Assembly: GCA_041917695.1 (NCBI GenBank)
Contig: JAYRXE010000037.1
Location: 609,013 to 673,012, forward strand
Source of the DNA: Minisyncoccota bacterium
Lineage (GTDB): Bacteria; Patescibacteriota; Minisyncoccia; UBA6257; GWB1-50-10
Direction: 5' to 3'
DNA length: 64,000 nt
This document shows, in pieces, positions 5,577 to 51,958 of this stretch. The notes under the pieces were generated by a model that saw nothing but the letters and a program-made list of their open reading frames with translations, was not told where the DNA came from and did no database searches. The position numbers and the translations under genes are program-made. Within the stretch, counting starts at the first letter, position 1. Every line of letters starts with the position of its first letter.

Positions 5577-6242
5577 CTATTCCTTCTTCAGATAATACGC
5601 GAAGTATATGAAGGGCGTGGAAACAAGCCCTACGAGGAGTTTCGCAAAAAATCCCGCCGCGGCGATACCCACCACCATCTCCGCGGACATCGCCCCGTAG
5701 AACGCCAGGGGGAAAAAGATAAGGCTGTCGATCATTTGAACAACCACGGCGGCCGAACCGTTCCTAATCCACAGATTTTTCGTCTTCTTCTTCAGCCGCT
5801 CATAAAAACCAATAGCTACCGATTGGCTGACGATGAAGGCAATAAGACTCGCGATTCCTATCCGCGGGACCATTTGGAAGACCCCGCGGATAGCTTCATC
5901 AAATACCCGGCTCGCCGGCGCGCCCCCGGCGCTCACCGTAAGCTCCGCGAGGATGAGGGAAAAGATGAGAAGCGCCGACGATTGCCACACCGCGCGCAAT
6001 GCCACCGCTTTCCCATGGAATTCAAGAATCAAGATGATGGCATAGAAAATCGAGGCATAAAAAACGTTTCCGGCATTCATGGTAAAACCGAACACGGAGA
6101 CTATTTTTGAGCCCAAGGTCGTAATAAGAAGAAGGTTCACCACGATGGTCCCGTAGAGCCACTCCTTCCCGAAACGCGAAAGCAGCGTGATGAAAAACAA
6201 CTCGATCAGTATCCGCCCGATATAGAGAATCCCCCCTTCCAT
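5577..6242 (-). CDS. YhhQ/DUF165 family membrane protein (putative queuosine-precursor transporter)
   Basis: A 221-aa polytopic membrane protein with a conserved QMIDS segment, as in the vitamin-uptake-like transporter family. Confidence 0.55.
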   Translation of the reverse strand: MEGGILYIGRILIELFFITLLSRFGKEWLYGTIVVNLLLITTLGSKIVSVFGFTMNAGNVFYASIFYAIILILEFHGKAVALRAVWQSSALLIFSLILAELTVSAGGAPASRVFDEAIRGVFQMVPRIGIASLIAFIVSQSVAIGFYERLKKKTKNLWIRNGSAAVVVQMIDSLIFFPLAFYGAMSAEMVVGIAAAGFFAKLLVGLVSTPFIYFAYYLKKE

Positions 6243-6295: not shown

Positions 6296-8326
6296 GTGAT
6301 AGGATTAACCTATACGGCCCCTATGAAGAAGGACTCCCCGCGCATTTCCGAAAACTATTATCGGAATATCTTTTTTGCTTTTCTTATCACGCTCGCCGCG
6401 GGAGCCGCCCTCGTCTCTGCGATCGGACCCATAACCCGCACGCTTGATGCCGGAACGGCCAAGCGCTCAACTTCCTTTGCCGAGGACGGCATCAACGCGG
6501 AATTCCGGAAGCTTTCCCAAGAGGTACGGGAACTCGCGGCATCAAAAGTCATCTCCTTTTATTTGGAAAAAGGCGATAGGGAGAAGCTTCTCGCCTATTC
6601 CGTAGAAGAGGCCCGCCGGCGCGGATTGGACGGACTTCTCATCACCGACAAGGACGGCATGGTGCTTTCCCGCGCCTCGCTTGCGATGCGGCAAGGAGAC
6701 TACGTTTCCCAAACGACCGGCTGGGGACGCGCACTCACCATGGGCGAGAAGGTCGCCTCCATAGAAGCGACGACAAACGGCGGAACCTCCCTTATCGCGG
6801 GAGAGCCGCTTTTTAACAACGGGGAACAAATCGGCGGCGTTGCGGTAGGCTATGCTTTGAATGACGCCCGCGCGAAAAATTTTCGCGACACCTATTTTGG
6901 CGCCGGGAATGAAATTGTATTTGCGAACCGCGAAGGAAGCGCGCTTGGCAGCAGTTTTGAAAACGGCACCATCCCCGTATCCCTGCAGTCGTATTTCAAA
7001 ACCGAAGGGCCGCGCGAAAATACCGCCCCCATGCAGATTCGCATCAAGGACAAATATTACGTCGTAAGTGCCCTTACCCTCCACGGTCTTGCAGACGAAT
7101 CGGGCAAGCTTTTCATATTGACCCCCAATCCCGTGCCGGCCAACGCCTTGCTTTTCGCCGTTCTTCTCGCGCTGATCTTTTTGGTTTCCGAGGTATTCAT
7201 TCACCGCGCAAGCAAAGGCGCCAGGCGCGAACGCTCGCACATCATTCTTATTGTTGCCCTCACGCTTTCCATCTACTTTGCCTCCACGGCGCTCCTCGTC
7301 GCCGTTATGGACCGGCAGGCATCGGTCGCGCTCACGCCCGAATACTCCATGTATAACTCGACGATATCATTCCAGCCCGATGCGAATCTCGTGCGCGAAA
7401 ACACCGAACAAGTGATCAGTATTGAGACAAAAAGCGGCGGCGAGGCGGTGAATGTCGTGAGCGCCGAAGTTCTCTTCGACCCCCGGAAAGCGGAGATCCT
7501 TGAAATCAGCACGGCGCGGTCGTTTTGCGAGAAAGAATTTTTCCTTGAACGGGATATCGACAATGATGCGGGACGCGCGCAGATTACCTGCGTTCTGCCT
7601 TCGCCGGGCTTTGCCGGAGACGGCGTTCTCGCCGATCTTATTATCCGCCCCTTATCCATAGGAACCTTCTCGCTTACCTTTGGAACCAGTACGCAAGTGC
7701 TCGCAAACGACGGATTGGGCACCAGCGTCCTCCGCGATCAGACGAACGGTTCGTACCGCGTCGCCCCGCTTGATTTTTCTTCCAGCTCGGAATTCGTCCT
7801 GTATTCGCCGAGCCACCCCAACAGCGAGCGATGGTACGACAACAACATCCTTTCGTTCGTATGGCCCTCGGCATCGCGGGATACGACCTTCTTCTACGCC
7901 CTGAGCGACGCTCCTCTCTCGCCGGCTGAACTAAAAGCACGCGGCGTGCGGACTTCCTTGAGCGAAGCAACGACGACCGCGCCGCAGGACGGCATCTTCT
8001 TTTTCAACCTCCTTAAAGAAGGTGCGAAAACGCCCGCGACATACCTCGTACGCATCGACACAACGCCTCCAGAGGCGCCCCGCATAAAGGCCAGCACCTC
8101 GGTTCCGCGCCCGAATGAAGTCGTACGCTTCGAATTCGGAACCCGCGACGACGGAAGCGGCCTTCAACGCGGTTACTATGTAAAAATAGACGGGGGACTT
8201 TACCTTCCCGTGGGCGAACGGCTTTTCACCTCTTTTGCGAGACCGGGAACGCATACGGTTGTCATCCGCGCATTCGATAAAGCCAATAACTGGAGCGAGT
8301 CCGAAATGACGATTGAAGTCAAATAA
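6296..8326 (+). CDS. Membrane-anchored surface protein (hypothetical). It has an N-terminal TM segment, a sensor-like extracellular domain, a second TM segment, and C-terminal beta-rich cohesin-like and Ig-like domains
   Basis: Long ORF with clear TM segments at about aa 25-45 and 280-330. The C-terminal 350 aa are beta-rich. A bidirectional terminator follows at 8325-8351. The true start may be the ATG at 6323 (MKKDSP). Confidence 0.5.
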   Translation: MIGLTYTAPMKKDSPRISENYYRNIFFAFLITLAAGAALVSAIGPITRTLDAGTAKRSTSFAEDGINAEFRKLSQEVRELAASKVISFYLEKGDREKLLAYSVEEARRRGLDGLLITDKDGMVLSRASLAMRQGDYVSQTTGWGRALTMGEKVASIEATTNGGTSLIAGEPLFNNGEQIGGVAVGYALNDARAKNFRDTYFGAGNEIVFANREGSALGSSFENGTIPVSLQSYFKTEGPRENTAPMQIRIKDKYYVVSALTLHGLADESGKLFILTPNPVPANALLFAVLLALIFLVSEVFIHRASKGARRERSHIILIVALTLSIYFASTALLVAVMDRQASVALTPEYSMYNSTISFQPDANLVRENTEQVISIETKSGGEAVNVVSAEVLFDPRKAEILEISTARSFCEKEFFLERDIDNDAGRAQITCVLPSPGFAGDGVLADLIIRPLSIGTFSLTFGTSTQVLANDGLGTSVLRDQTNGSYRVAPLDFSSSSEFVLYSPSHPNSERWYDNNILSFVWPSASRDTTFFYALSDAPLSPAELKARGVRTSLSEATTTAPQDGIFFFNLLKEGAKTPATYLVRIDTTPPEAPRIKASTSVPRPNEVVRFEFGTRDDGSGLQRGYYVKIDGGLYLPVGERLFTSFARPGTHTVVIRAFDKANNWSESEMTIEVK

Positions 8327-13948: not shown

Positions 13949-13969
13949 ATTATTGGATTATACGCCGGG

Positions 13970-13997
13970 TTGAGGAAAAGAAAAACGAACCTATAAT
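13970..13997 (+). promoter_or_regulatory. Putative sigma70 promoter for tsaD: -35 TTGAGG, 16-nt spacer, -10 TATAAT at 13992-13997, only 9 nt before the ATG
   Basis: A consensus -10 hexamer lies immediately upstream of the start codon at 14007. This implies a very short or absent leader. Confidence 0.5.
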
Positions 13998-14006
13998 CAG
14001 GATGTT

Positions 14007-15035: not shown

Positions 15036-15064
15036 TTGACTTTTTTAAATAGTGGTGGTATAAT
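15036..15064 (+). promoter_or_regulatory. Consensus sigma70 promoter: -35 TTGACT, 17-nt spacer, -10 TATAAT
   Basis: Exact spacing and hexamers. It lies about 185 nt upstream of the small ORF at 15248. Confidence 0.65.
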
Positions 15065-15247
15065 AAAAACAGAAGATTAATAAACCCGCCCCATACCTCT
15101 TCCAACACCAACAGATTTTTTGGAGGAGCGTATCTCAATTTCCCCACCGCCCCTCATCACTGAGGGGCTCCTGCCTCTTAAGGGGCTCGGCGCGCGCAGG
15201 GAAAAGGGGTATAACAAACAAAGCAACTTATTAAAAGAAAGGGATAT

Positions 15248-15481
15248 ATGCCAACATCAATGCTTTTCAGGAAGATAGCCTTACGATGCCTCACGGTCGT
15301 CGCGTGGGTCTTTCTTTTTCTGAGGGAGAGTTCCTCATCAAAGGAACATTTTACCCAAAACATTGCACCGTTTCTGCGGGACCAGCTGTACCTTGGCAGT
15401 ATTCTTTTTTGGGCAATTGCGATGCTTATCCTCTGCGTGAGCATCTACACCCTCCGCGAAAAACACCCTTATCATCCGTGA
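15248..15481 (+). CDS. Small membrane protein (77 aa, two TM helices), hypothetical
   Basis: A GGGA ribosome-binding site lies 6 nt upstream. A strong rho-independent terminator (15487-15512) is directly downstream, and a consensus promoter is upstream. Confidence 0.35.
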   Translation: MPTSMLFRKIALRCLTVVAWVFLFLRESSSSKEHFTQNIAPFLRDQLYLGSILFWAIAMLILCVSIYTLREKHPYHP

Positions 15482-15486
15482 TTTTT

Positions 15487-15512
15487 ATCCGCCGTCCCCG
15501 GCGGATTTTTTA
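15487..15512 (+). terminator. Rho-independent terminator (ATCCGCCG-tccc-CGGCGGAT followed by a T6 tract)
   Basis: 8-bp GC-rich stem, 4-nt loop, U-tract. Confidence 0.7.
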
Positions 15513-18448: not shown

Positions 18449-19105
18449 TTATATTTCCGTACTTCGTCTCCGCCAGATGAACCGTCCGGGGAAATACATG
18501 ACGAGCGGCTCCCGCACGGAACCCACAAAGTACGGCGTGAGAAATATTTCTCCCCGCTTTCCCGTTTTGTTCGTATGCGTGTAGACGCCGATATATTTCA
18601 CCGCGCCTCCCCTGCCCCGCACGGGAAAGACATTCAGCGCCTGCGGCATCAAAACGTTCCGATGCATGAAGTGCGTGAACATCACGCGAAACGGCACGTC
18701 GTATGAGAACATCCCATACCCGTCCTCGCGACTGCTTCCGCTTACCAGACGGTCCGCCCATCCCGCGTCAAAGAAAAGGCGCATTTCCCTTTCGGGAACG
18801 ATTGGCGAACATTCGCACAGCAGCGGATCCGGCGGGAGGATCGGGTCCAAATGCTTCTCAAACTGTTTCGGTTCCACGGAGATATGCAGCAGTTTTGAAA
18901 ACGAAAAGAGTGCATGAAGTTTCACGGGTTTGGACCGCGGGGGAAGCACGCACCCGGAAACAAGCGTAAAGCCTGAAGGAAACGAATGAAGGCTCTGCGC
19001 CATCTCTACCTCCGGTGAGTTGTTTAATTTTGCTCCCTTAGTTCTAGGCGACGCGGAGGGGCCTGTCAACGAGTGTGCTATAATGTGCCTATAAACGTAT
19101 TCCAC
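18449..19105 (-). CDS. Hypothetical protein; start uncertain (GTG at 19105 would overlap the hsp20 promoter, and an internal Met about 34 codons in is the more likely start)
   Basis: ORF of 218 aa with no recognisable motifs (one HxS, not a convincing 2H phosphoesterase). Confidence 0.35.
   Translation of the reverse strand: MEYVYRHIIAHSLTGPSASPRTKGAKLNNSPEVEMAQSLHSFPSGFTLVSGCVLPPRSKPVKLHALFSFSKLLHISVEPKQFEKHLDPILPPDPLLCECSPIVPEREMRLFFDAGWADRLVSGSSREDGYGMFSYDVPFRVMFTHFMHRNVLMPQALNVFPVRGRGGAVKYIGVYTHTNKTGKRGEIFLTPYFVGSVREPLVMYFPGRFIWRRRSTEI
19054..19084 (+). promoter_or_regulatory. Putative promoter of the hsp20 gene with an extended -10 (TGcTATAAT at 19076-19084)
   Basis: TG-n-TATAAT lies 23 nt upstream of the ATG at 19108. 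-35-like TGTCAA. Confidence 0.5.
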
Positions 19106-19657: not shown

Positions 19658-19927
19658 ATGAACTCTTCTTCACCCGCTCTCGCGAGAGCGAACGATAATT
19701 CATTTGTTTTCCTTATCATCATAGTCTCAAGCGCCATTCTGGCTTTCGTTTTCGCCCAATTGGGCGACTGGAGCGGAGTCGGCATCATGCTCGTCATCGC
19801 CGGCGCATCCCTTATCCTGTATGCGATTTTTAGCAAAAGAATACCGAGGGGAAAGGGGCATGTATACCTCTATGAGATAGGATGCCTTATCGTCCTTGTA
19901 GGATTCGGACTCGTTTATGCGCTGTAA
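19658..19927 (+). CDS. Small membrane protein (89 aa, 3 TM), hypothetical
   Basis: Preceded by AAGGA and followed by a strong bidirectional terminator at 19929-19963. Confidence 0.35.
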   Translation: MNSSSPALARANDNSFVFLIIIVSSAILAFVFAQLGDWSGVGIMLVIAGASLILYAIFSKRIPRGKGHVYLYEIGCLIVLVGFGLVYAL

Positions 19928-19975: not shown

Positions 19976-21946
19976 TTAGAGAAACGGGACGATGAGCAGG
20001 GCAACAATGTTGATGACTTTGATAAGCGGATTTATGGCGGGGCCGGCGGTGTCCTTGTAGGGGTCGCCGACGGTGTCTCCGGTCACGGCCGCCTTGTGGG
20101 CTTCCGAACCCTTCCCGCCGAAATTGCCGTCTTCAATGTATTTCTTCGCGTTGTCCCACGCGGCGCCGCCCGAGGTCATCGAAAGCGCGACGAAGAGTCC
20201 CGAGATGATCGTGCCGATCAAGAGTCCTCCCAAGGCCTGCGGGCCGAGGATGAAACCGACGATAAGCACGATGGCGAGCGGAAGGATGGAGGGTACCACC
20301 ATTTCGCGGAGTGCCGCCTTCGTGACGATATCCACCGCCTTGCCGTATTCCGGCTTCGCGGAACCGTCCATGATGCCTTTGATCTCGCGGAACTGACGGC
20401 GAATCTCGTTAACGATGGCACCTGCCGCCTTCCCAACCGACTTCATTGCAATCGAACCGAAGAGGTACGGGATTGCGCCTCCCAAGAGAAGGCCGATGAC
20501 CACTTCTGGGCTCTGGAGGTCGAAGGTGACCGTCCCGAAGACCTTTTTCAATTCTTCGGTGTAGCCCGCGAAGAGCACGAGCGCGGCGAGGCCCGCCGAA
20601 GCGATGGCGTAGCCTTTCGTGACGGCTTTCGTGGTGTTTCCGACCGCGTCCAACGCGTCGGTCACTTCGCGGACGTCCTGCGGAGCCTCCGACATTTCGG
20701 CGATGCCGCCGGCGTTATCCGTCACGGGGCCGAAGGAATCGATGGCAACGACGATGCCTGCAACCGAAAGCATGGCCGTCGCGGCGAGCGCGATGCCGTA
20801 AATGCCGAGTACGGAATACGCGCCCAAGGTGGCGAGCGCAATCACGATAATCGGCAGGAAGGTCGATTCCATGCCGACCGAGAGGCCCATGATGATATTC
20901 GTACCGTGGCCCGACGCGGACGATTCAGCGATGGATTTCACGGGACGGTATTTCTTCGCGGTGTAGTAATCGGTGATGACGACCATAAGCGCCGTCGTCG
21001 CAAGGCCGATAAGCGTGCACATGAAGACCTTGCCCGCGATATCCGGGAAATAGGTCGAGCTCGCAAAGTAGAAGAACACTGCGGAAGCGATGAGCGAGGC
21101 GATGAGCCCCTTATAGAGGGCCGTCATGATGCCTCCCTTCGACTTCGCACGGACGAAGAACATGCCGATGATGGACGCGATGATTGCAAGACCGCCCAGC
21201 ACGAACGGGAAGAGAAGCTCGTTTCCCGCGAGGCCAAGCGACGAACCCAAAAGGATTGCCGCCGTAAGCGTCACCGCATAGGTCTCAAAAAGATCCGCAG
21301 CCATGCCGGCGCAGTCGCCGACGTTGTCGCCGACGTTGTCCGCGATGACACCGGGGTTCCGGGGATCGTCTTCGGGGATGCCCGCTTCAACCTTGCCGAC
21401 CAGGTCGGTGCCGACGTCCGCGGCTTTCGTGAAGATGCCTCCTCCGAGACGGGCGAAGACGGAAATCAAGCTCGCGCCGAAACCGAGACCGATGAGCGGT
21501 TCGACCGCCCCCCCGGAGAGATAGTAAAATCCGGCGACGGAAAGCAACCCCATCGCGACGACGAGGATGCCCGTGACGGAGCCCGCCTTAAAGGCGAGCG
21601 ACAATGCCCGGCCGAGGCCGTGGCGCGCCGCTTCGGTCGTCTTCGAGTTCGAAGAGACCGCGACGTTCATGCCGATATATCCGGCGATGGCGGACATGAC
21701 GGCGCCAACCAAAAAGCCGAATGCGGCGAGCCAGCTTAACGCGAGACCGATCACTATAAACAGCGCGACCGCGACGTAGGCGACCGTCCTATACTGGCGG
21801 TTCAAATACGCCTTCGAGCCCGCCTTGATGGCGTCGGCGATGGCGACCATGCGCTCGTTCCCCCGCGGCTGGCGCGTGAGCCATCCCATCGTGAAAACGG
21901 TGTAGACGGCTGCGAGAACAATAGGGAGGAAAATGACTGTTTGCAT
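19976..21946 (-). CDS. hppA: Membrane-bound proton-translocating pyrophosphatase (K+-independent type)
   Basis: [18 protein letters not shown] and [21 protein letters not shown] motifs. GNTTKA (Lys rather than Ala) indicates the K+-independent class. Confidence 0.9.
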
Positions 21947-21947
21947 A

Positions 21948-23144
21948 TTAGTTTTTTTCTTCGTTGGTTTCTTCTGTGGGTGCGCCTTCGGCGACTTCCG
22001 CGGGCGCCTGTGCGATGCCGCCTTCCTGCACTTCGTCAGGATTCGACTGCGAACGCACGTCTATCTTCCAGCCGGTAAGGCGTGCGGCGAGCCGCACGTT
22101 CTGCCCCCCGCGGCCGATGGCGAGTGAGAGTTGGTCGTCCGGGACGAACACCTTCGCCTCGCGGCGCGGAAGGATCTCGACCGCTTTCACCTTCGCGGGC
22201 GAGAGGGCATTACCGACGTATTTCTCCGGATCTTCTGACCACGGAATGATATCGATCTTTTCCGAACCGAGTTCGCCGGTGATGGCCATGATGCGCATAC
22301 CGCGTTGGCCGACCGCCGACCCGACCGGGTCAACGCCGTCCTGTCCCGACCATACCGCGATCTTCGTGCGGCTGCCGGGTTCGCGGGCGATGCCCTTCAC
22401 TTCGACGATGCCGTCGGCGACTTCGGGGATTTCAAGCTCGAAGAGCTTCTCCACGAACTTGGGGTGCGCGCGCGAAAGGATGATGCCCGGTCGGCGCGTG
22501 TCCTGCTGGACGGCAACCACGTAAAAACGCATGCGGTCCCCCGCTTTGTAGTGTTCGCTCGGAATCGATTCCGAAGGGAACATGATGCCGACCGCCCTGC
22601 CGAGGTTCACGTACACGTTCCCCCGATCGAAACGTTCGACGGTGCCCGAAAGGATCTTTCCTTCCCGGTCTTTGAACTCGTCATAGATAGACGAACGCTC
22701 CGCGTCGCGGATCGACTGCAAGACGACCTGCTTCGCCGTCTGTGCGGCGATGCGTCCGAAATCGTCGTGGGCCTCAAGCGGGAACTCGAGTTCCTCGCCT
22801 TCGACCGCGTCCGCCTTTATCTTCTTCGCCTCGTCGAGGAAGAGATGGCGGTCCGGATTGTAGCGGGGAAATTCCGCTTCCTCCTCAACCGCGGGATTTT
22901 CCTCCTCCCCTTCTTCAACGATCCGCACGTGTTCGGGAATGACGACCGTCTTCACCTGCCAAAACGTCGACTTCCCCGAATCGAGATCGAGGGTCGCGCG
23001 GACCACTTCCGTCTTCTTGCGGTACTCCTTCTTATAGGCGGCCGCGATCGCGTTCTCGATTGCCGCGAGCACCTTGCCTGCCTCGATACCCTTCTCCGCG
23101 GCGATCTGGTTTATCGCCGTCGAGAGGCCTTTCAAATCCATCAT
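21948..23144 (-). CDS. nusA: Transcription termination/antitermination factor NusA
   Basis: N-terminal domain, S1 domain, and KH domains ([23 protein letters not shown]). Its stop is 1 nt from the hppA start. Confidence 0.85.
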
Positions 23145-23319
23145 TGTCTTTTATAGATATATAATTTTTCGACCTTATATATTTACCTTTCGGCATTACC
23201 CGTTCCGTGAAAAACATGCGAAAAGGGTAAACAAAAAACCGACTCTAAAGAGCGGCTTTCTATGGTTCTTACAATACTCCCCTCTCCCGTTTCGTCAAAC
23301 TCTCCAGGTTCGGGATATA

Positions 23320-23348
23320 TTGACAGACTGGCCTATTTATGCTATACT
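23320..23348 (+). promoter_or_regulatory. Consensus sigma70 promoter: -35 TTGACA (23320-23325), 17-nt spacer, -10 TATACT (23343-23348)
   Basis: Perfect -35, near-perfect -10, optimal spacing. An AGGAGG ribosome-binding site at 23383-23388 and an ATG at 23395 follow. Confidence 0.7.
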
Positions 23349-23394
23349 TATTTTAGTAATTAATTAATAACTTTTTAACTTTAGGAGGTTAAAA

Positions 23395-23934
23395 ATGAAA
23401 TATTGGATCCAATTAGTTTTATCCCTCACAGCCTTTGTGGGAATTTCGTATCTTGTAATCACAGATGTGAACGAAACACTACTTTTAACCGTTTACAAAT
23501 CTCCCACCACTGAGGTTTTAACGAAAGCGCCCGGGGAATTTATGCCTATGCGCAACTATTTCAGAACAAACGATGGTGAAATGCTGATCATTGATAGATT
23601 AGACAGCATAAAAGAATTGAATCGCTACAGCAAAGGAAGCGATGCATTGGTTATCGAAATGGAAGGTGACCAGGTACGTATCGCCGGTATCAGACCAGAA
23701 CTCGTAAGATGCGTATGGATAAGTGCCCCCAGCATTGTCCAAAAAATCAAATCGATAGAAGTTAAGTCTGACTTGGATAATGTATATATCACGTGCTTCG
23801 TGGAAAGAGATTGGGCACAGTCAATAATAGCGCTTACATTAGTATCCATCTTCTCTCTTCCATTCTTCTTTTACGCTGTGCACCGTCTCCAAAGGCTGAA
23901 AGAAGCGAGGCTGATTGAAAAGGCGACAATTTAA
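23395..23934 (+). CDS. Membrane protein of unknown function (N- and C-terminal TM helices) in a low-GC cassette
   Basis: Strong ribosome-binding site and promoter, terminator at 23947-23977. GC content about 38% against about 60% for its neighbours. Foreign codon usage (AGA/AGG Arg, ATA Ile, TTA Leu). Confidence 0.55.
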   Translation: MKYWIQLVLSLTAFVGISYLVITDVNETLLLTVYKSPTTEVLTKAPGEFMPMRNYFRTNDGEMLIIDRLDSIKELNRYSKGSDALVIEMEGDQVRIAGIRPELVRCVWISAPSIVQKIKSIEVKSDLDNVYITCFVERDWAQSIIALTLVSIFSLPFFFYAVHRLQRLKEARLIEKATI

Positions 23935-23946
23935 GATTCTAATTCA

Positions 23947-23977
23947 AAACCCGCTTGTTCAGCGGGTTTCTTTTTTA
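23947..23977. terminator. Bidirectional terminator (AAACCCGCT-tgttc-AGCGGGTTT followed by a T-tract)
   Basis: Hairpin between the convergent island ORF and the yraN-like gene. Confidence 0.7.
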
Positions 23978-24364
23978 CACATTCTCGTAGTGATGCTCGA
24001 GCCAGTCGTTTCCAATACGCGTAAGGCAGATGCAATCGCACCGCCAGCCCCTACACTCATCAACCAACTCGGGATGCAGGCGGGCATACGCTTCCGATGC
24101 TCGATGGAACTTTATGAGTTTTGACGGACTCATCTGGTCTTCCGGCCGAATCCCCTCGCTGAAATTCCTCATCGTCTTCACTTCGACAAAAACGAGGGTT
24201 TTATCCCCCGCTTTTGCGACGATGTCTATTTCTCCGAAAGGCTTCCGCCAGTTCAACTCTACTATCCGGCACCCCTTCTCTTCCAGAATCTCGGAAGCCT
24301 TTCTCTCTCCTTCCTTCCCCAGTTCCCTGCTTTCCATACCGGTTTTAATTATAGCACTTTCCAT
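23975..24364 (-). CDS. YraN/UPF0102 family endonuclease-like protein (restriction-endonuclease fold)
   Basis: GEIDIVA...LVFVEVKTM core matching the UPF0102 signature (GEIDLIA...LVFVEVKTR). The real start may be the Met at 24337. Confidence 0.6.
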   Translation of the reverse strand: MESAIIKTGMESRELGKEGERKASEILEEKGCRIVELNWRKPFGEIDIVAKAGDKTLVFVEVKTMRNFSEGIRPEDQMSPSKLIKFHRASEAYARLHPELVDECRGWRCDCICLTRIGNDWLEHHYENV

Positions 24365-24368
24365 TCTT

Positions 24369-24388
24369 AAAATGTTTACCGGTAAACA
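24369..24388. promoter_or_regulatory. Palindromic operator-like site 1: AAAATGTTTA-CCGG-TAAACA (perfect 16-bp palindrome TGTTTACCGGTAAACA at 24373-24388)
   Basis: Read directly from the sequence. It lies immediately upstream of the yraN-like gene. Confidence 0.5.
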
Positions 24389-24429
24389 ACTTACAAAAAA
24401 GCGTAGGATTCATGCGGTTACTGAGTATT

Positions 24430-24461
24430 CAAGCTAGGCCTTAAAATGTAGGCCTAGCTTG
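24430..24461. repeat. Perfect 12-bp inverted repeat CAAGCTAGGCCT-taaaatgt-AGGCCTAGCTTG (stable hairpin or cruciform)
   Basis: Read directly from the sequence. It lies between the two palindromic sites. Confidence 0.6.
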
Positions 24462-24538
24462 ACTATCAGGTTCAGTAAAAACACAACCCGGTTTTTCAAT
24501 TTATTCAGTTTTTCCTGGGTTTTTTGATTTTTTGTTTC

Positions 24539-24562
24539 AAAATGTTTATCGGTAAACATTTT
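24539..24562. promoter_or_regulatory. Palindromic operator-like site 2: AAAATGTTTA-TCGG-TAAACATTTT (10-bp perfect arms)
   Basis: Same half-sites as site 1, 170 bp away. Confidence 0.5.
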
Positions 24563-24646
24563 TAACATGAATTTTGGGCAAAAGTGCAAAAAAGCTAATA
24601 ACCATCTTCCTACCCGGTTCTCAAACCCACACTTCTCCCGATGAAC

Positions 24647-24675
24647 AAAAAAACCGCCCGAGGCGGTTTATTTTC
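24647..24675 (-). terminator. Rho-independent terminator for the phosphoesterase gene (AAACCGCC-cga-GGCGGTTT; T-tract on the minus strand)
   Basis: GC hairpin immediately after the stop at 24675. Confidence 0.65.
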
Positions 24676-25382
24676 TAGACTTTGACTGCTTGAGGCTTTC
24701 CAACGAGTACGGACTCCATCCGCACTTCTCCATCCTTCAAGAGAATATAGGAGCATTTATCGTCCACCCAGCACCCGGAGTTCAGATAGGTCGTTTTCCC
24801 CGACTTCATCGTCAGGCAATCGTGGGTGTGTCCGCAGAACACATAGTCCATGCCTTTTCCGGAAGCATATTCAAGGGCTCCCTTCGCCACCCGCTTGGAG
24901 ACCCTAAGCCAGACCTTATACCGCTTTTTGACGAATCCGCTCATGCGCTTCTTTTGACCGTCAAAACGCTGGATGAGCCGATAGGAGCGGTTCAACGTCG
25001 TCGCGAGCGGCTCGCTCTGGATGAGGAATTTATCGTACTGGTGCCCGTGGAGGACGACGCACCGCTTGCCGCTCCACGTGAAGGAAAAGTGGGTATGCGT
25101 CTCAATACCGAGGGATTTGAAGAACTGCTTCGCGAAGAAGTCATGGTTTCCGGCGACCCAGATGACCCGTTTTCCGGAAAGGGCGATTTCCCTGAGTCGT
25201 GTGAGCAGCTGCCAATGGTCGGGGGAAAGAAATCGGAGGTTCGGATTATCGAGAATGTCGCCGTTTAAAATAAGCGTGCCGAAGTCCGTGCGCGCCAAAA
25301 AGGCGGCGAGATCCTTCGCCCGGGCCATTCGCGAGCCCAAATGCAGGTCGGAGACGATAAGAATAGAGGAATCGATGTCCAT
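24675..25382 (-). CDS. Calcineurin-like metallophosphoesterase (LpxH-like family)
   Basis: SDLHLG, GDILD, GNHD and GHTH motifs in the canonical order. Confidence 0.75.
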   Translation of the reverse strand: MDIDSSILIVSDLHLGSRMARAKDLAAFLARTDFGTLILNGDILDNPNLRFLSPDHWQLLTRLREIALSGKRVIWVAGNHDFFAKQFFKSLGIETHTHFSFTWSGKRCVVLHGHQYDKFLIQSEPLATTLNRSYRLIQRFDGQKKRMSGFVKKRYKVWLRVSKRVAKGALEYASGKGMDYVFCGHTHDCLTMKSGKTTYLNSGCWVDDKCSYILLKDGEVRMESVLVGKPQAVKV

Positions 25383-27567: not shown

Positions 27568-27593
27568 ATAGATAAAAACTTGAAGATAAAAAT

Positions 27594-27616
27594 AAAGCCG
27601 CATTAAAGCGGCTTTT
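27594..27616. terminator. Bidirectional terminator (GCCGC-attaaa-GCGGC with flanking A and T tracts)
   Basis: Short GC stem. It follows the ftsK stop. Confidence 0.45.
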
Positions 27617-27875
27617 GTGAAACTATGAAATACAGAGTAGGTAAGGCTAGAAAAACTATCGCCATCCCTATTCTGGAGAAAAGATGCATATCTTTTCCCA
27701 AAAAAATTACATACGTGAACCCTGCAAATGGGGCGACTATGAACGCTATCGCTATAAGAACCTTAATGGTAACGACATTAAGTTCGTTGAGGTCCCCGGC
27801 GAAGGGGATAGTCATGAGCGAAAAAAATATCGTTAGCGCCAACATAAGCGCCGGAATGGCTTTTCTTGATTCCAT
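27603..27875 (-). CDS. Small membrane protein (90 aa, 3 TM), hypothetical
   Basis: Hydrophobic ORF in an AT-rich intergenic region. No ribosome-binding site checked. Confidence 0.3.
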   Translation of the reverse strand: MESRKAIPALMLALTIFFSLMTIPFAGDLNELNVVTIKVLIAIAFIVAPFAGFTYVIFLGKDMHLFSRIGMAIVFLALPTLYFIVSQKPL

Positions 27876-27905
27876 TTTTTTACCTATTTGATTAGTAATT
27901 ATTAC

Positions 27906-27921
27906 TGTTATAAATATAACA
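27906..27921. promoter_or_regulatory. 16-bp palindrome TGTTATA-AA-TATAACA (context ACTGTTATAAATATAACATG), candidate SOS-box-like operator upstream of the rodZ-like/recA operon
   Basis: Perfect 7-bp arms. It resembles the CTGT-N8-ACAG LexA-box architecture. Confidence 0.4.
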
Positions 27922-28004
27922 TGTTATTAGCATTTTGTCAATATATCGAATATCGTTGAACTGAGGCCCCTTTTATGCGATAGTGGAAAAACTCAAAGCC
28001 CCCT

Positions 28005-36139: not shown

Positions 36140-36154
36140 GTAACGCCCTTCCGG

Positions 36155-36227
36155 TGGGTCAGGAAGGATTTGAACCTTCGGTCGCCGAGGTATAAGCTCG
36201 GTGCTTTAACCACTAAGCTACTGACCC
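36155..36227 (-). tRNA. tRNA-Ile with anticodon UAU (reads AUA without a lysidine-modified CAU)
   Basis: Manual fold: acceptor GGGTCAG/CTGACCC, D-arm GCTT-AGTGGTTA-AAGC, anticodon stem CCGAG/CTCGG with loop CTTATAC (anticodon positions 34-36 = TAT), T-arm GAAGG-TTCAAAT-CCTTC. 73 nt. Confidence 0.65.
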
Positions 36228-40193: not shown

Positions 40194-40367
40194 AAAATGA
40201 AAGTAGTTACTTTTTGTCGTATTCGCTCGGAAACACCTCTTCCAGGTGCTTCTCTCGCTTCATTCGACAATAGCCTTCCTATCATACGGAGAAGGGGGGT
40301 ACGCGTCAAGAATAACCGCTCAAAAACGATTGAAAAGAAGGCTGAATTACTCTAGAATCTACCTCGT

Positions 40368-48915: not shown

Positions 48916-48944
48916 TTGACATTTTCCGGGCTTTACGGTAGAAT
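48916..48944 (+). promoter_or_regulatory. Consensus sigma70 promoter of rpsO: -35 TTGACA, 17-nt spacer, -10 TAGAAT; 10 nt before the ATG
   Basis: Exact hexamers and spacing. The predicted transcription start is 3-4 nt from the start codon, so the mRNA is leaderless or near-leaderless. Confidence 0.65.
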
Positions 48945-48954
48945 CCTTCCATCT

Positions 48955-49221
48955 ATGCTTTCTAAGACGAAAAAGACCCGCGTCATCGCGGACTATAAAC
49001 TGCACGAAACGGACACGGGTTCCGCCGAGGTGCAAATCGCGCTTTTGACGCGCCAGATCAAGGAACTCGCCGACCACCTGAAAAAACACCCGAAAGACCA
49101 CCACTCCCGCCGCGGCCTTCTGATGATGGTCGGCAAACGCCGCCGGTTCATGCAGTTTCTCCAGAAAAGCGACGTTAAAAAGTACGAGAAGCTTTCGAAG
49201 AAACTCGCGCTCGACCTCTAA
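48955..49221 (+). CDS. rpsO: 30S ribosomal protein S15
   Basis: MLSKTKKTRVIADYKLHETDTGSAEVQIALLTRQIKELADHLKKHPKDHHSRRGLLMMVGKRRR. Start assigned to the ATG at 48955. The track start is over-extended. Confidence 0.9.
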   Translation: MLSKTKKTRVIADYKLHETDTGSAEVQIALLTRQIKELADHLKKHPKDHHSRRGLLMMVGKRRRFMQFLQKSDVKKYEKLSKKLALDL

Positions 49222-51924: not shown

Positions 51925-51952
51925 TTTACAGCGAAATCAGAAGTGGTAGAAT
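51925..51952 (+). promoter_or_regulatory. Promoter with an extended -10 (TGgTAGAAT at 51944-51952; -35 TTTACA) ending 6 nt before the ATG at 51959
   Basis: TG-n-TAGAAT. The predicted transcription start coincides with the start codon (leaderless). Confidence 0.5.
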
Positions 51953-51958
51953 TGAGCC

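Follow-up and report, generated by a model that had tools for sequence, protein, structure and literature searches.

Within the 64-kb stretch of a Minisyncoccota chromosome analysed here (the window), the low-GC region between nusA and a metallophosphoesterase gene probably contains a single genuinely foreign element, a unit of about 675 bp (~23299-23974) in the spacer between yraN and nusA. The unit consists of a promoter, a 46-nt leader, an open reading frame (ORF) of 179 codons termed ORF179, and a terminator. It is best explained, with fair confidence, as an accessory gene for a surface or envelope protein that resembles a phage moron and is swapped by recombination within a hypervariable slot of a candidate phyla radiation (CPR) chromosome. 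A preliminary description had treated the whole of 23150-24670, including yraN and the AT-rich DNA beyond it, as one recently acquired cassette. Recent horizontal acquisition is supported for the ORF179 unit, which is absent from relatives, has atypical codons and expression signals, and carries a swapped allele. It is not supported for the block as a whole, in which yraN is syntenic with a host-like GC content at third codon positions (GC3), the nusA upstream region is conserved, and the spacer beyond yraN is conserved non-coding DNA. The unit and the genes on either side of it are arranged as follows.

19976-21946, minus strand: H+-PPase gene
21948-23144, minus strand: nusA
23231-23298, minus strand: nusA upstream region, with a promoter-like TTGACG-16-TATTGT and then a terminator-like hairpin; ancestral, outside the cassette
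23299-23974, plus strand: inserted strain-variable cassette, ~675 bp
23320-23348, plus strand: predicted sigma70-type promoter TTGACA-17-TATACT with a TG extended -10 and ATA in front (consensus match)
23355-23372, plus strand: near-perfect palindrome AGTAATTAATTAATAACT in the 46-nt leader, possibly an operator
23383-23388, plus strand: Shine-Dalgarno sequence AGGAGG, 6 nt before the ORF179 ATG
23395-23934, plus strand: ORF179, 179 aa
23947-23969, both strands: predicted bidirectional intrinsic terminator, ending ORF179 and the convergent yraN
23975-24337, minus strand: yraN, convergent with ORF179

Related loci, designated by L-numbers, were retrieved through NusA and belong to uncultured Patescibacteria/Parcubacteria, the nearest being Jorgensen-, Harrison- and Paceibacteria-like metagenome-assembled genomes. 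The closest genome, L002 (CAYHLH010000008; NusA identity 81%), keeps the order RecA-HTH25-FtsK-phosphoesterase-YraN-NusA-PPase without ORF179, and has 238 bp between the yraN stop codon and the nusA ATG. Likewise, only 105-211 bp separate nusA from a directly upstream yraN in L005, L008, L016, L066 and L067; in L004, L010 and L012, truB and a NUDIX gene stand between the two. Because the spacer is empty in L002 and in five more distant relatives, the empty state is taken to be ancestral and ORF179 to have been gained, and an orthologous cassette common to all relatives, which would have spoken for an ancestral origin, was not found. The nusA and phosphoesterase genes, whose adjacency elsewhere had been proposed as a sign of clean insertion, are never adjacent in the relatives examined.

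The left junction of the cassette falls just after a conserved GTTTGAC (23298), and the right junction coincides with the yraN stop codon. The flanking direct repeats that the preliminary description had proposed to look for were not found at these junctions, nor was a target-site duplication or recombination site. On the nusA side, the segment 23145-23298 is 100% identical in L082, the sister strain described below, and is recognisable in L002, where it directly follows yraN. The hairpin within its 23231-23298 part has a folding energy of -14.5 kcal/mol, and this part may be an attenuator-type nusA leader (NusA autoregulation) or an ancestral yraN terminator.

The strongest evidence for exchange at the slot comes from the only homologue of ORF179. 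A word-seeded search of 5.8 billion proteins returned an identical fragment only, while HMMER, run exhaustively on 1.84 billion representatives, recovered a single homologue, P0002, a protein of 181 aa that is 32% identical to ORF179 (E 1.5e-18), aligns gap-free over 167 residues, and keeps both transmembrane (TM) segments. A profile search with the ORF179-P0002 alignment recovered no further family members. The P0002 gene lies on a 2.6-kb contig, L082, from Joint Genome Institute (JGI) sample 3300045377. The nusA and yraN flanks of this contig have an overall identity of 97-98% to the window, rising to 100% beside the slot. Identity between the window and L082 changes sharply along the locus.

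Up to 23298: 100%
Promoter-leader and first ~6 codons: 80-97%
ORF body, 23418-23931: 30-57%
Terminator: 93-97%
Beyond the terminator: 100%

Since alleles that are 32% identical cannot have evolved in situ between identical flanks, allelic replacement by recombination is required. Both alleles co-occur in sample 3300045377. Furthermore, in three other samples the contigs that encode an identical NusA run out 99-184 bp upstream of the gene, ORF179 is interrupted by a contig end in two cases, and in all, contigs from five assemblies (L116, L117, L120, L121, and L122) end at the cassette promoter or inside ORF179. Assemblers break contigs at polymorphic sites, and these breaks are consistent with co-existing alleles in the populations. 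L117, in which the 3' part of ORF179 is joined to unrelated high-GC DNA, was considered as evidence of rearrangement and set aside as a probable assembly chimera.

The slot is also used by other cassettes. Upstream of the P0002 unit, L082 carries a second unit with a promoter, a GGAGG site, ORF119, and a terminator. ORF119 has one homologue, P0004 (ORF117; 68% protein identity), which is encoded on L118, a 35%-GC relative whose YraN is 57% identical to that of the window. Two units lie 3' of yraN in L118, encoding ORF117 and the unrelated ORF153, and the neighbour on the other side is not nusA. Both L118 units combine a ATATTGACA-N17-TATAxT promoter with an AGGAG site and a terminator. The ORF117 unit is 73% identical at the DNA level to the ORF119 unit of L082 over 520 bp, including the promoter, the terminator, and the next promoter. 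Transfer within the clade is argued because the ORF119/ORF117 cassette is better conserved than the adjacent yraN and has a GC content like that of low-GC relatives. Altogether, the slot 3' of yraN holds zero to two cassettes, with orphan cargo that differs by lineage. Several distant relatives carry a different surface-protein gene at the yraN-downstream position, a large gene whose secreted product has 700-1700 aa and a 'PPP(Q/R)C(I/L)G' motif that is conserved at the N-terminal end (L009 4137-6539, L015 5542-7638, L017 2733-7802, L032 4921-7272, and L056 2356-4512).

In composition, ORF179 stands apart from its host. In 300-nt windows, GC is 0.59-0.64 in nusA but only 0.37-0.41 across 23100-24000 and 0.35-0.39 across 24300-24750, so that the drop from about 0.6 to 0.35-0.41 between nusA and the phosphoesterase gene noted at the outset is confirmed. 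The 23100-24750 tract is the largest low-GC tract of the window (54.5% GC), which also contains ten smaller low-GC patches, and many spacers of this genome have a GC content of 0.26-0.44. ORF179 itself has a GC content of 0.41 and a GC3 of 0.44, compared with 0.68 in the host pool. AGA and AGG make up 64% of its Arg codons (9% in the host), TTA 30% of its Leu codons (3%), and ATA 26% of its Ile codons (14%). Its codon score (z -4.25) lies below that of 5000 of 5000 length-matched host samples, and the codon-usage comparison thus upholds the earlier claim that the frame uses codons rare in the host.

The expression signals claimed for the cassette are likewise present. The TTGACA-17-TATACT promoter scores 11/12, near-consensus rather than perfect, with its TG extended -10; it is one of seven sites scoring at least 10/12 in 64 kb, and the extended pattern at 23320-23348, for which chance predicts 0 occurrences, is found nowhere else in the window. 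In the leader, the palindrome segment 23355-23372 is 97% conserved in L082. The AGTAAT..ATTACT pattern occurs twice in 64 kb against 0.125 expected, in both cases just 3' of the -10 of a cassette (ORF179 and orf90, the latter described below). The AGGAGG at 23383-23388, a perfect ribosome-binding site as claimed, is the sole 6/6 Shine-Dalgarno match among 56 genes surveyed. Host genes mostly lack a Shine-Dalgarno sequence and have instead a -10-like box (TATAAT or TAGAAT) 6-12 nt before the ATG (for example at 13949-14006, 40330-40367, 48916-48960, and 51925-51958), which suggests that mRNAs in this CPR genome are predominantly leaderless or have very short leaders. Because host genes place the -10 near the ATG and do without a Shine-Dalgarno sequence, the leader-plus-Shine-Dalgarno design of the cassettes is alien to the genome. 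The terminator at 23947-23969 folds with -13.1 and -15.7 kcal/mol (z ~ -5.5). It appears to travel with the cassette, because it is near-identical in L082 (93-97%) and different in L118.

A ATATTGACA...TATAYT promoter module precedes orf90 in the window as well as three cassettes in L082 and L118, and four promoter-leader modules align with one another. The pattern TTGACA-N8-TATTTATGCTATAYTTA was tried as a cassette finder and rejected, as its 30 metagenome and 3 viral loci were all unrelated generic strong promoters with other leaders. The leader sequence TTAGTAATTAATTAATAACTTTTT had 0 matches in viral contigs.

ORF179 has TM helices at about residues 5-23 and 144-162 according to hydropathy and AlphaFold2 (AF2) models, and the layout proposed earlier, of an N-terminal TM helix, a soluble middle, and a C-terminal TM helix, is thereby borne out. 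The order is TM1, a beta-sandwich of ~115 aa within a soluble stretch of ~120 aa, TM2, and a basic C-terminal tail. The AF2 model of the full-length protein places an all-beta domain between TM1 and a long TM2 helix (pLDDT 75), and the domain modelled alone reaches pLDDT 80 and pTM 0.75; the input was a two-sequence alignment, and the best of five models was confident while the other four were poor. The domain is predicted to be a beta-sandwich, possibly of an HSP20/CS-like fold. The protein would cross the membrane two times, leaving its N- and C-terminal ends in the cytoplasm and the beta-sandwich outside the cell. That ORF179 is a real gene is argued by the gap-free 181-aa homologue with both TM segments together with the AF2 domain model. 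ORF179 has no match in Pfam, PHROGs, PADLOC, NCBIfam, or Protein Data Bank (PDB) sequences. Neither blastn nor tblastn revealed DNA or protein similarity between ORF179 and any of 50,697 phage or 72,556 plasmid records, and the predicted structure of ORF179 has no viral structural match. The suggestion of a phage or plasmid remnant, or of a defence or addiction cassette, therefore finds no backing in PADLOC, PHROGs, Pfam, NCBIfam, the phage and plasmid records, or viral folds.

From these data a working model of the cassette can be proposed. Transcription would start at the near-consensus extended -10 sigma70 promoter, and the 46-nt leader would bring the operator-like palindrome and the AGGAGG, from which the 179-aa protein would be translated. 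The terminator would stop both the cassette transcript and the convergent yraN transcript, and a common repressor may act at the leader palindrome. Alleles are probably exchanged by homologous recombination, for which the core-gene flanks, the terminator, and the conserved promoter-leader would supply the matching sequence; the cassette pool drawn on would be low in GC, like relatives such as L118. ORF179 would then encode an accessory protein of the envelope or surface on which diversifying selection acts, with candidate roles in blocking phage adsorption or entry, or in contact with a host or partner cell.

The remainder of the low-GC region is native to the clade. The yraN product matches PF02021 (UPF0102) at 70.7 bits against a cutoff of 23.6, and the convergent gene is thus a member of the UPF0102/YraN family, as first proposed. 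It matches the NCBIfam YraN models at E 4.5e-21, below their equivalog cutoffs, and has Pfam side-matches to NERD and Hjc. The protein is predicted to be a PD-(D/E)xK-type nuclease. Comparison with L002 indicates that its true start is probably at 24337 (120 aa) rather than at 24364; an exact-sequence look-up of both the 120-aa and the 129-aa form gave no match. YraN is 60% identical to its L002 counterpart in the same position and is syntenic in at least 14 relatives. Given this clade-wide synteny and its host-like GC3 of 0.63 and codon score, yraN is an ancestral core gene outside the cassette. The protein itself is ordinary for its family, scoring above the gathering threshold and being conserved in relatives. 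Its promoter appears to be of the leaderless type, with an extended -10 at 10 nt before the ATG; in L002 a TATAAT lies 7 nt before the yraN ATG, and a like arrangement is found at many host genes.

Beyond yraN lies the AT-rich spacer, with the following features.

24348-24356, minus strand: TGcTATAAT extended -10, 10 nt before the yraN ATG, a putative leaderless-type promoter
24373-24388: parS-like palindrome TGTTTACCGGTAAACA, with a variant core
24426-24465: strong hairpin with 16-nt arms and no T-run, between the two parS-like sites
24543-24558: second parS-like palindrome, TGTTTATCGGTAAACA
24651-24669: predicted bidirectional terminator of the phosphoesterase gene, in a hairpin with 12-nt arms at 24647-24673
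AT-rich spacer as a whole: 310 bp, between yraN and the metallophosphoesterase gene
24675-25382, minus strand: metallophosphoesterase gene

The two palindromes and the hairpin reported for this AT-rich leader are present, the palindromes with 0 expected by chance; as part of a cassette the leader does not stand, since relatives carry parS arrays there. The TGTTTACCGGTAAACA site is also found upstream of yraN in L002 and L118, and AAAATGTTTACCGGTAAACATTTT is perfectly kept there, with one copy in L002 and two in L118, despite a YraN identity of 57-60%. More distant relatives have arrays of TGTTTCACGTGAAACA at the syntenic position. This 16-mer is the canonical chromosomal parS consensus (PMC7022226), and the sites of the relatives match the consensus at 14-16 of 16 positions. 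There are eight perfect TGTTTCACGTGAAACA sites within 470 bp in L067 (6934-7412), nine parS sites in L056 (964-1742), and six in L023/L024 (6607-6868), as well as clusters in L009 (2160-2480), L015, L016, and L032. The clusters of L005, L010, and L012 are located ~800 bp upstream. The dense arrays of L067, L056, L023/L024, and L009 lie in non-coding DNA beside yraN or ftsK. To our knowledge, the steady association of yraN with parS arrays in this clade is not a described feature.

The sites of the window itself match the parS consensus TGTTNCACGTGAAACA at 12 of 16 positions, short of the full 16-bp consensus, with a core of ACCGGT. They resemble chromosomal parS in being 16-bp perfect palindromes with outer arms TGTTT...AAACA at the position of the relatives' arrays, and differ from it at positions 6, 7, 10, and 11 and in being present in two copies only. 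The left half-site of the second palindrome, TGTTTATC, also occurs inside the L056 parS array, and mixed arrays hold the half-sites TGTTTATC and TGTTTGCC, bridging to the form seen in the window. Because relatives hold parS arrays at the syntenic place and the half-sites bridge the two forms, the spacer is likely to be the centromere region of the clade, here reduced to two variant parS sites at which ParB would load. The central CCGG is common to the window sites and the Noc-binding site (NBS) TATTTCCCGGGAAATA (bioRxiv 10.1101/2022.02.28.481274), from which they differ at positions 2, 6, 11, and 15. On a more speculative view, the lineage of the window has shifted its centromere to TGTTTACCGGTAAACA, as a hybrid of parS and NBS, and the specificity of its ParB would then have evolved along with it. 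The variant TGTTTACCGGTAAACA was not found in the searchable literature, and no ParA/ParB motif was found within the 64-kb window. If upheld, the finding would add an apparent variant centromere sequence to the dense parS arrays located beside yraN in this clade.

It is unlikely that the palindromes instead serve a dedicated transcription factor as operators, or YraN itself as a cruciform or autoregulatory target. Such a role would fit the overlap of site 1 with the expected -35 of the yraN TGcTATAAT promoter, the constant occurrence of the sites upstream of yraN, the ACCGGT core that departs from parS at 4 of 16 positions, and the lack of parAB genes nearby. However, the up to eight or nine perfect parS sites of relatives exceed the needs of an operator and are typical of centromere arrays, a divergently oriented gene separates the cluster from yraN in L005, L010, and L012, and the sites can be as near as 35 bp or as far as more than 800 bp from the start of yraN. 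Two further candidates were set aside. A replication origin, suggested by the repeated motif and the diverging genes, is contradicted by a uniformly negative GC skew across the window and by the motif being parS rather than a DnaA box, and a LexA/SOS box finds no support in recA, which lies in the same window without such a site.

The hairpin at 24426-24465 (-27.8 kcal/mol, z -7.1) is not found in L002. The 12-bp inverted repeat of the preliminary description is probably the terminator of the phosphoesterase gene. Rfam returned nothing at gathering thresholds on the AT-rich regions, with chance-level matches at E up to 1. Beside the parS-like sites there is a conserved block, CTGATA(G/A)T-N9-(C)CTACATTT (CTGATAGT-N9-CCTACATTTT), at 24443-24469 on the minus strand of the window, with counterparts in L002 (~5702-5728), L005 (~1505-1600, two copies), and L008 (~7445-7470).

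Several points weigh against the interpretation proposed here, both of the cassette and of the spacer. Because intergenic DNA here is itself AT-rich, low GC alone is no proof of foreign origin. No donor has been identified, and neither junction shows a target-site duplication or recombination site. The promoter, Shine-Dalgarno sequence, and terminator are predicted from consensus matches, and the promoter module is not cassette-specific, given that ATATTGACA promoters are found at ordinary genes of relatives too (L010, L012). The predicted fold depends on AF2 models from a two-sequence alignment, four of five of which scored poorly, and in a two-member family with saturated substitutions the ratio of nonsynonymous to synonymous substitutions (dN/dS) is not measurable. 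L082, L116-L118, and L120-L122 are short metagenome contigs, of which L117 looks chimeric. Finally, the spacer sites match parS at only 12/16 positions, and the window has no ParA or ParB gene.

Against this background, a native origin of ORF179, as a de novo or very fast-evolving gene from AT-rich intergenic DNA, has to be considered. The limitation of the family to two near-identical lineages among 1.84 billion representatives would agree with such an origin, as would the 26-44% GC of intergenic DNA here, the similar strong promoters at ordinary genes of the clade, and the further small low-GC membrane ORFs in spacers of the genome. It is nevertheless improbable. Alleles of 32% identity cannot arise in situ between 100%-identical flanks, and the ORF119/117 cassette is common to a 35%-GC lineage at an identity above that of the adjacent core gene. 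In addition, a confidently predicted compact beta-sandwich and an alignment free of gaps point to a fold with a long history, and the canonical Shine-Dalgarno sequence is alien to the leaderless style of the host.

Alternatively, the cassette proteins could be parts of toxin or immunity systems (a bacteriocin, polymorphic-toxin immunity, or a toxin-antitoxin (TA) pair such as ORF119 with ORF181), with strain variability reflecting toxin-immunity diversification. Small membrane or cytoplasmic orphans, a hypervariable slot, two adjacent cassettes in both L082 and L118, and extreme allelic divergence are all features that such systems might show. Yet the gene in the window stands alone, every cassette comes with a promoter and a terminator of its own instead of sharing an operon, and the partner of the ORF119-type protein varies, being ORF181 in L082 and the unrelated ORF153 in L118. 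Moreover, ORF179, P0002, ORF119, and orf90 have no match to a defence, toxin, immunity, or TA family in PADLOC, Pfam, NCBIfam, or PHROGs. This explanation is considered very unlikely.

There is perhaps a slim chance that the 3' side of yraN, some hundreds of bp from the parS array, is a gene-capture or exchange site at which orphan cassettes with a shared promoter-leader-operator module are shuffled across lineages of very different GC. Capture would follow a mechanism not yet recognised and could conceivably proceed through YraN, which is Holliday-junction-resolvase-like, or through ParB-associated recombination. If true, such a site would represent a new kind of cassette system, distinct from integrons. 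Least credible of all is the idea that the whole 1.5-kb block (ORF179, YraN, and the AT-rich leader) was acquired as one phage or plasmid remnant or one defence or addiction unit: the convergent ORF179 and yraN do have a terminator in common, YraN is nuclease-like by its NERD and Hjc side-matches, the entire block is lower in GC than the flanking genes, and cassettes always lie 3' of yraN, even in L118 where nusA is not a neighbour, but synteny largely refutes it, with YraN in place without ORF179 in L002 and at least 14 relatives, and so do the host-like codons of yraN, the lack of any mobile-element or defence match for ORF179, and the correspondence of the leader palindromes to the parS arrays of relatives.

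The swapped accessory gene proposed here is most readily compared with the phage moron (defined in PMC3594210), of which HK97 gene 15 is an example. The cassette has three of the four defining features of a moron. It is likewise an independent transcription unit with its own predicted promoter and terminator, it departs from the GC composition of its neighbours, and it is inserted between genes that are adjacent in relatives (L002, L005, L008, L016, L066, and L067). Like ORF179, the superinfection-exclusion moron product HK97 gp15 is a small membrane protein. Unlike a moron, the cassette lies between chromosomal core genes (its neighbours are nusA, the H+-PPase gene, yraN, ftsK, and recA, with no phage genes or similarity), and its cargo is exchanged from strain to strain while its place in the chromosome stays fixed.

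Replacement-type hypervariable loci, or flexible genomic islets, are known for the allelic replacement of surface genes between conserved flanks, as in flagellin and O-antigen loci. The slot described here shares with them identical flanks, a divergent gene body, co-occurring alleles, and assembly breaks, and differs in holding a single 0.5-kb orphan gene, with expression signals as the conserved arms and zero to two cassettes. Integron cassettes offer a further parallel, as the slot is likewise fixed and holds a short array of small, mostly orphan, atypical genes that vary by strain; the present cassettes instead carry their own promoters and terminators. No attC-like imperfect inverted repeats were found at the cassette junctions, and no integrase was identified beside the slot, where the flanks are yraN and nusA (not all other genes of the window were scanned for recombinases).

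The genomes of CPR/Patescibacteria are tiny and streamlined and encode many orphan membrane proteins, whose gain and variation are poorly understood. The present locus provides a clean, base-pair-resolved case in which a host-alien expression unit is swapped between core genes, in a slot that is reused in a relative of different GC. If the exposed beta-sandwich does mediate interaction with a phage or partner cell, such slots could mark strain-level arms races in episymbionts.

The window also contains a second unit of similar design, beyond the metallophosphoesterase gene.

Beyond the metallophosphoesterase gene, plus strand: ftsK
27588-27953, minus strand: low-GC sister cassette with the promoter module, a leader palindrome, an ORF for a 90-aa protein with three TM segments, and a predicted terminator
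27603-27875, minus strand: orf90, beyond ftsK, the ORF of this cassette; an HTH_25/RodZ-like gene and then recA follow

The orf90 promoter reads GATATATTGACA-N17-TATATT and is followed, just after the -10, by the leader palindrome AGTAATTATTACT. The terminator overlaps the stop codon. This cassette is not present in L002, and orf90 is an orphan with a codon z-score of -4.0.

A third insertion relative to L002, at 15036-15512 on the plus strand, is a looser cassette-like example with a TTGACT-17-TATAAT promoter and a terminator. Its leader of ~180 nt is unusually long and has G-rich and C-rich stretches, where a regulatory RNA is possible, and its ORF (15248-15481) encodes 77 aa with two TM segments and a codon z-score of -2.6. 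Two other ORFs, at 18449-19105 on the minus strand (218 aa) and 19658-19927 on the plus strand (89 aa), have the lowest codon scores of the host, no Pfam family, and no L002 counterpart, and may be further lineage-specific additions. Elsewhere in the window, ARAGORN detects a tRNA-Ile with anticodon TAT at 36153-36227 on the minus strand, beside a tRNA-Val(TAC); tRNA-Ile(TAT) is an uncommon route for decoding AUA in bacteria.

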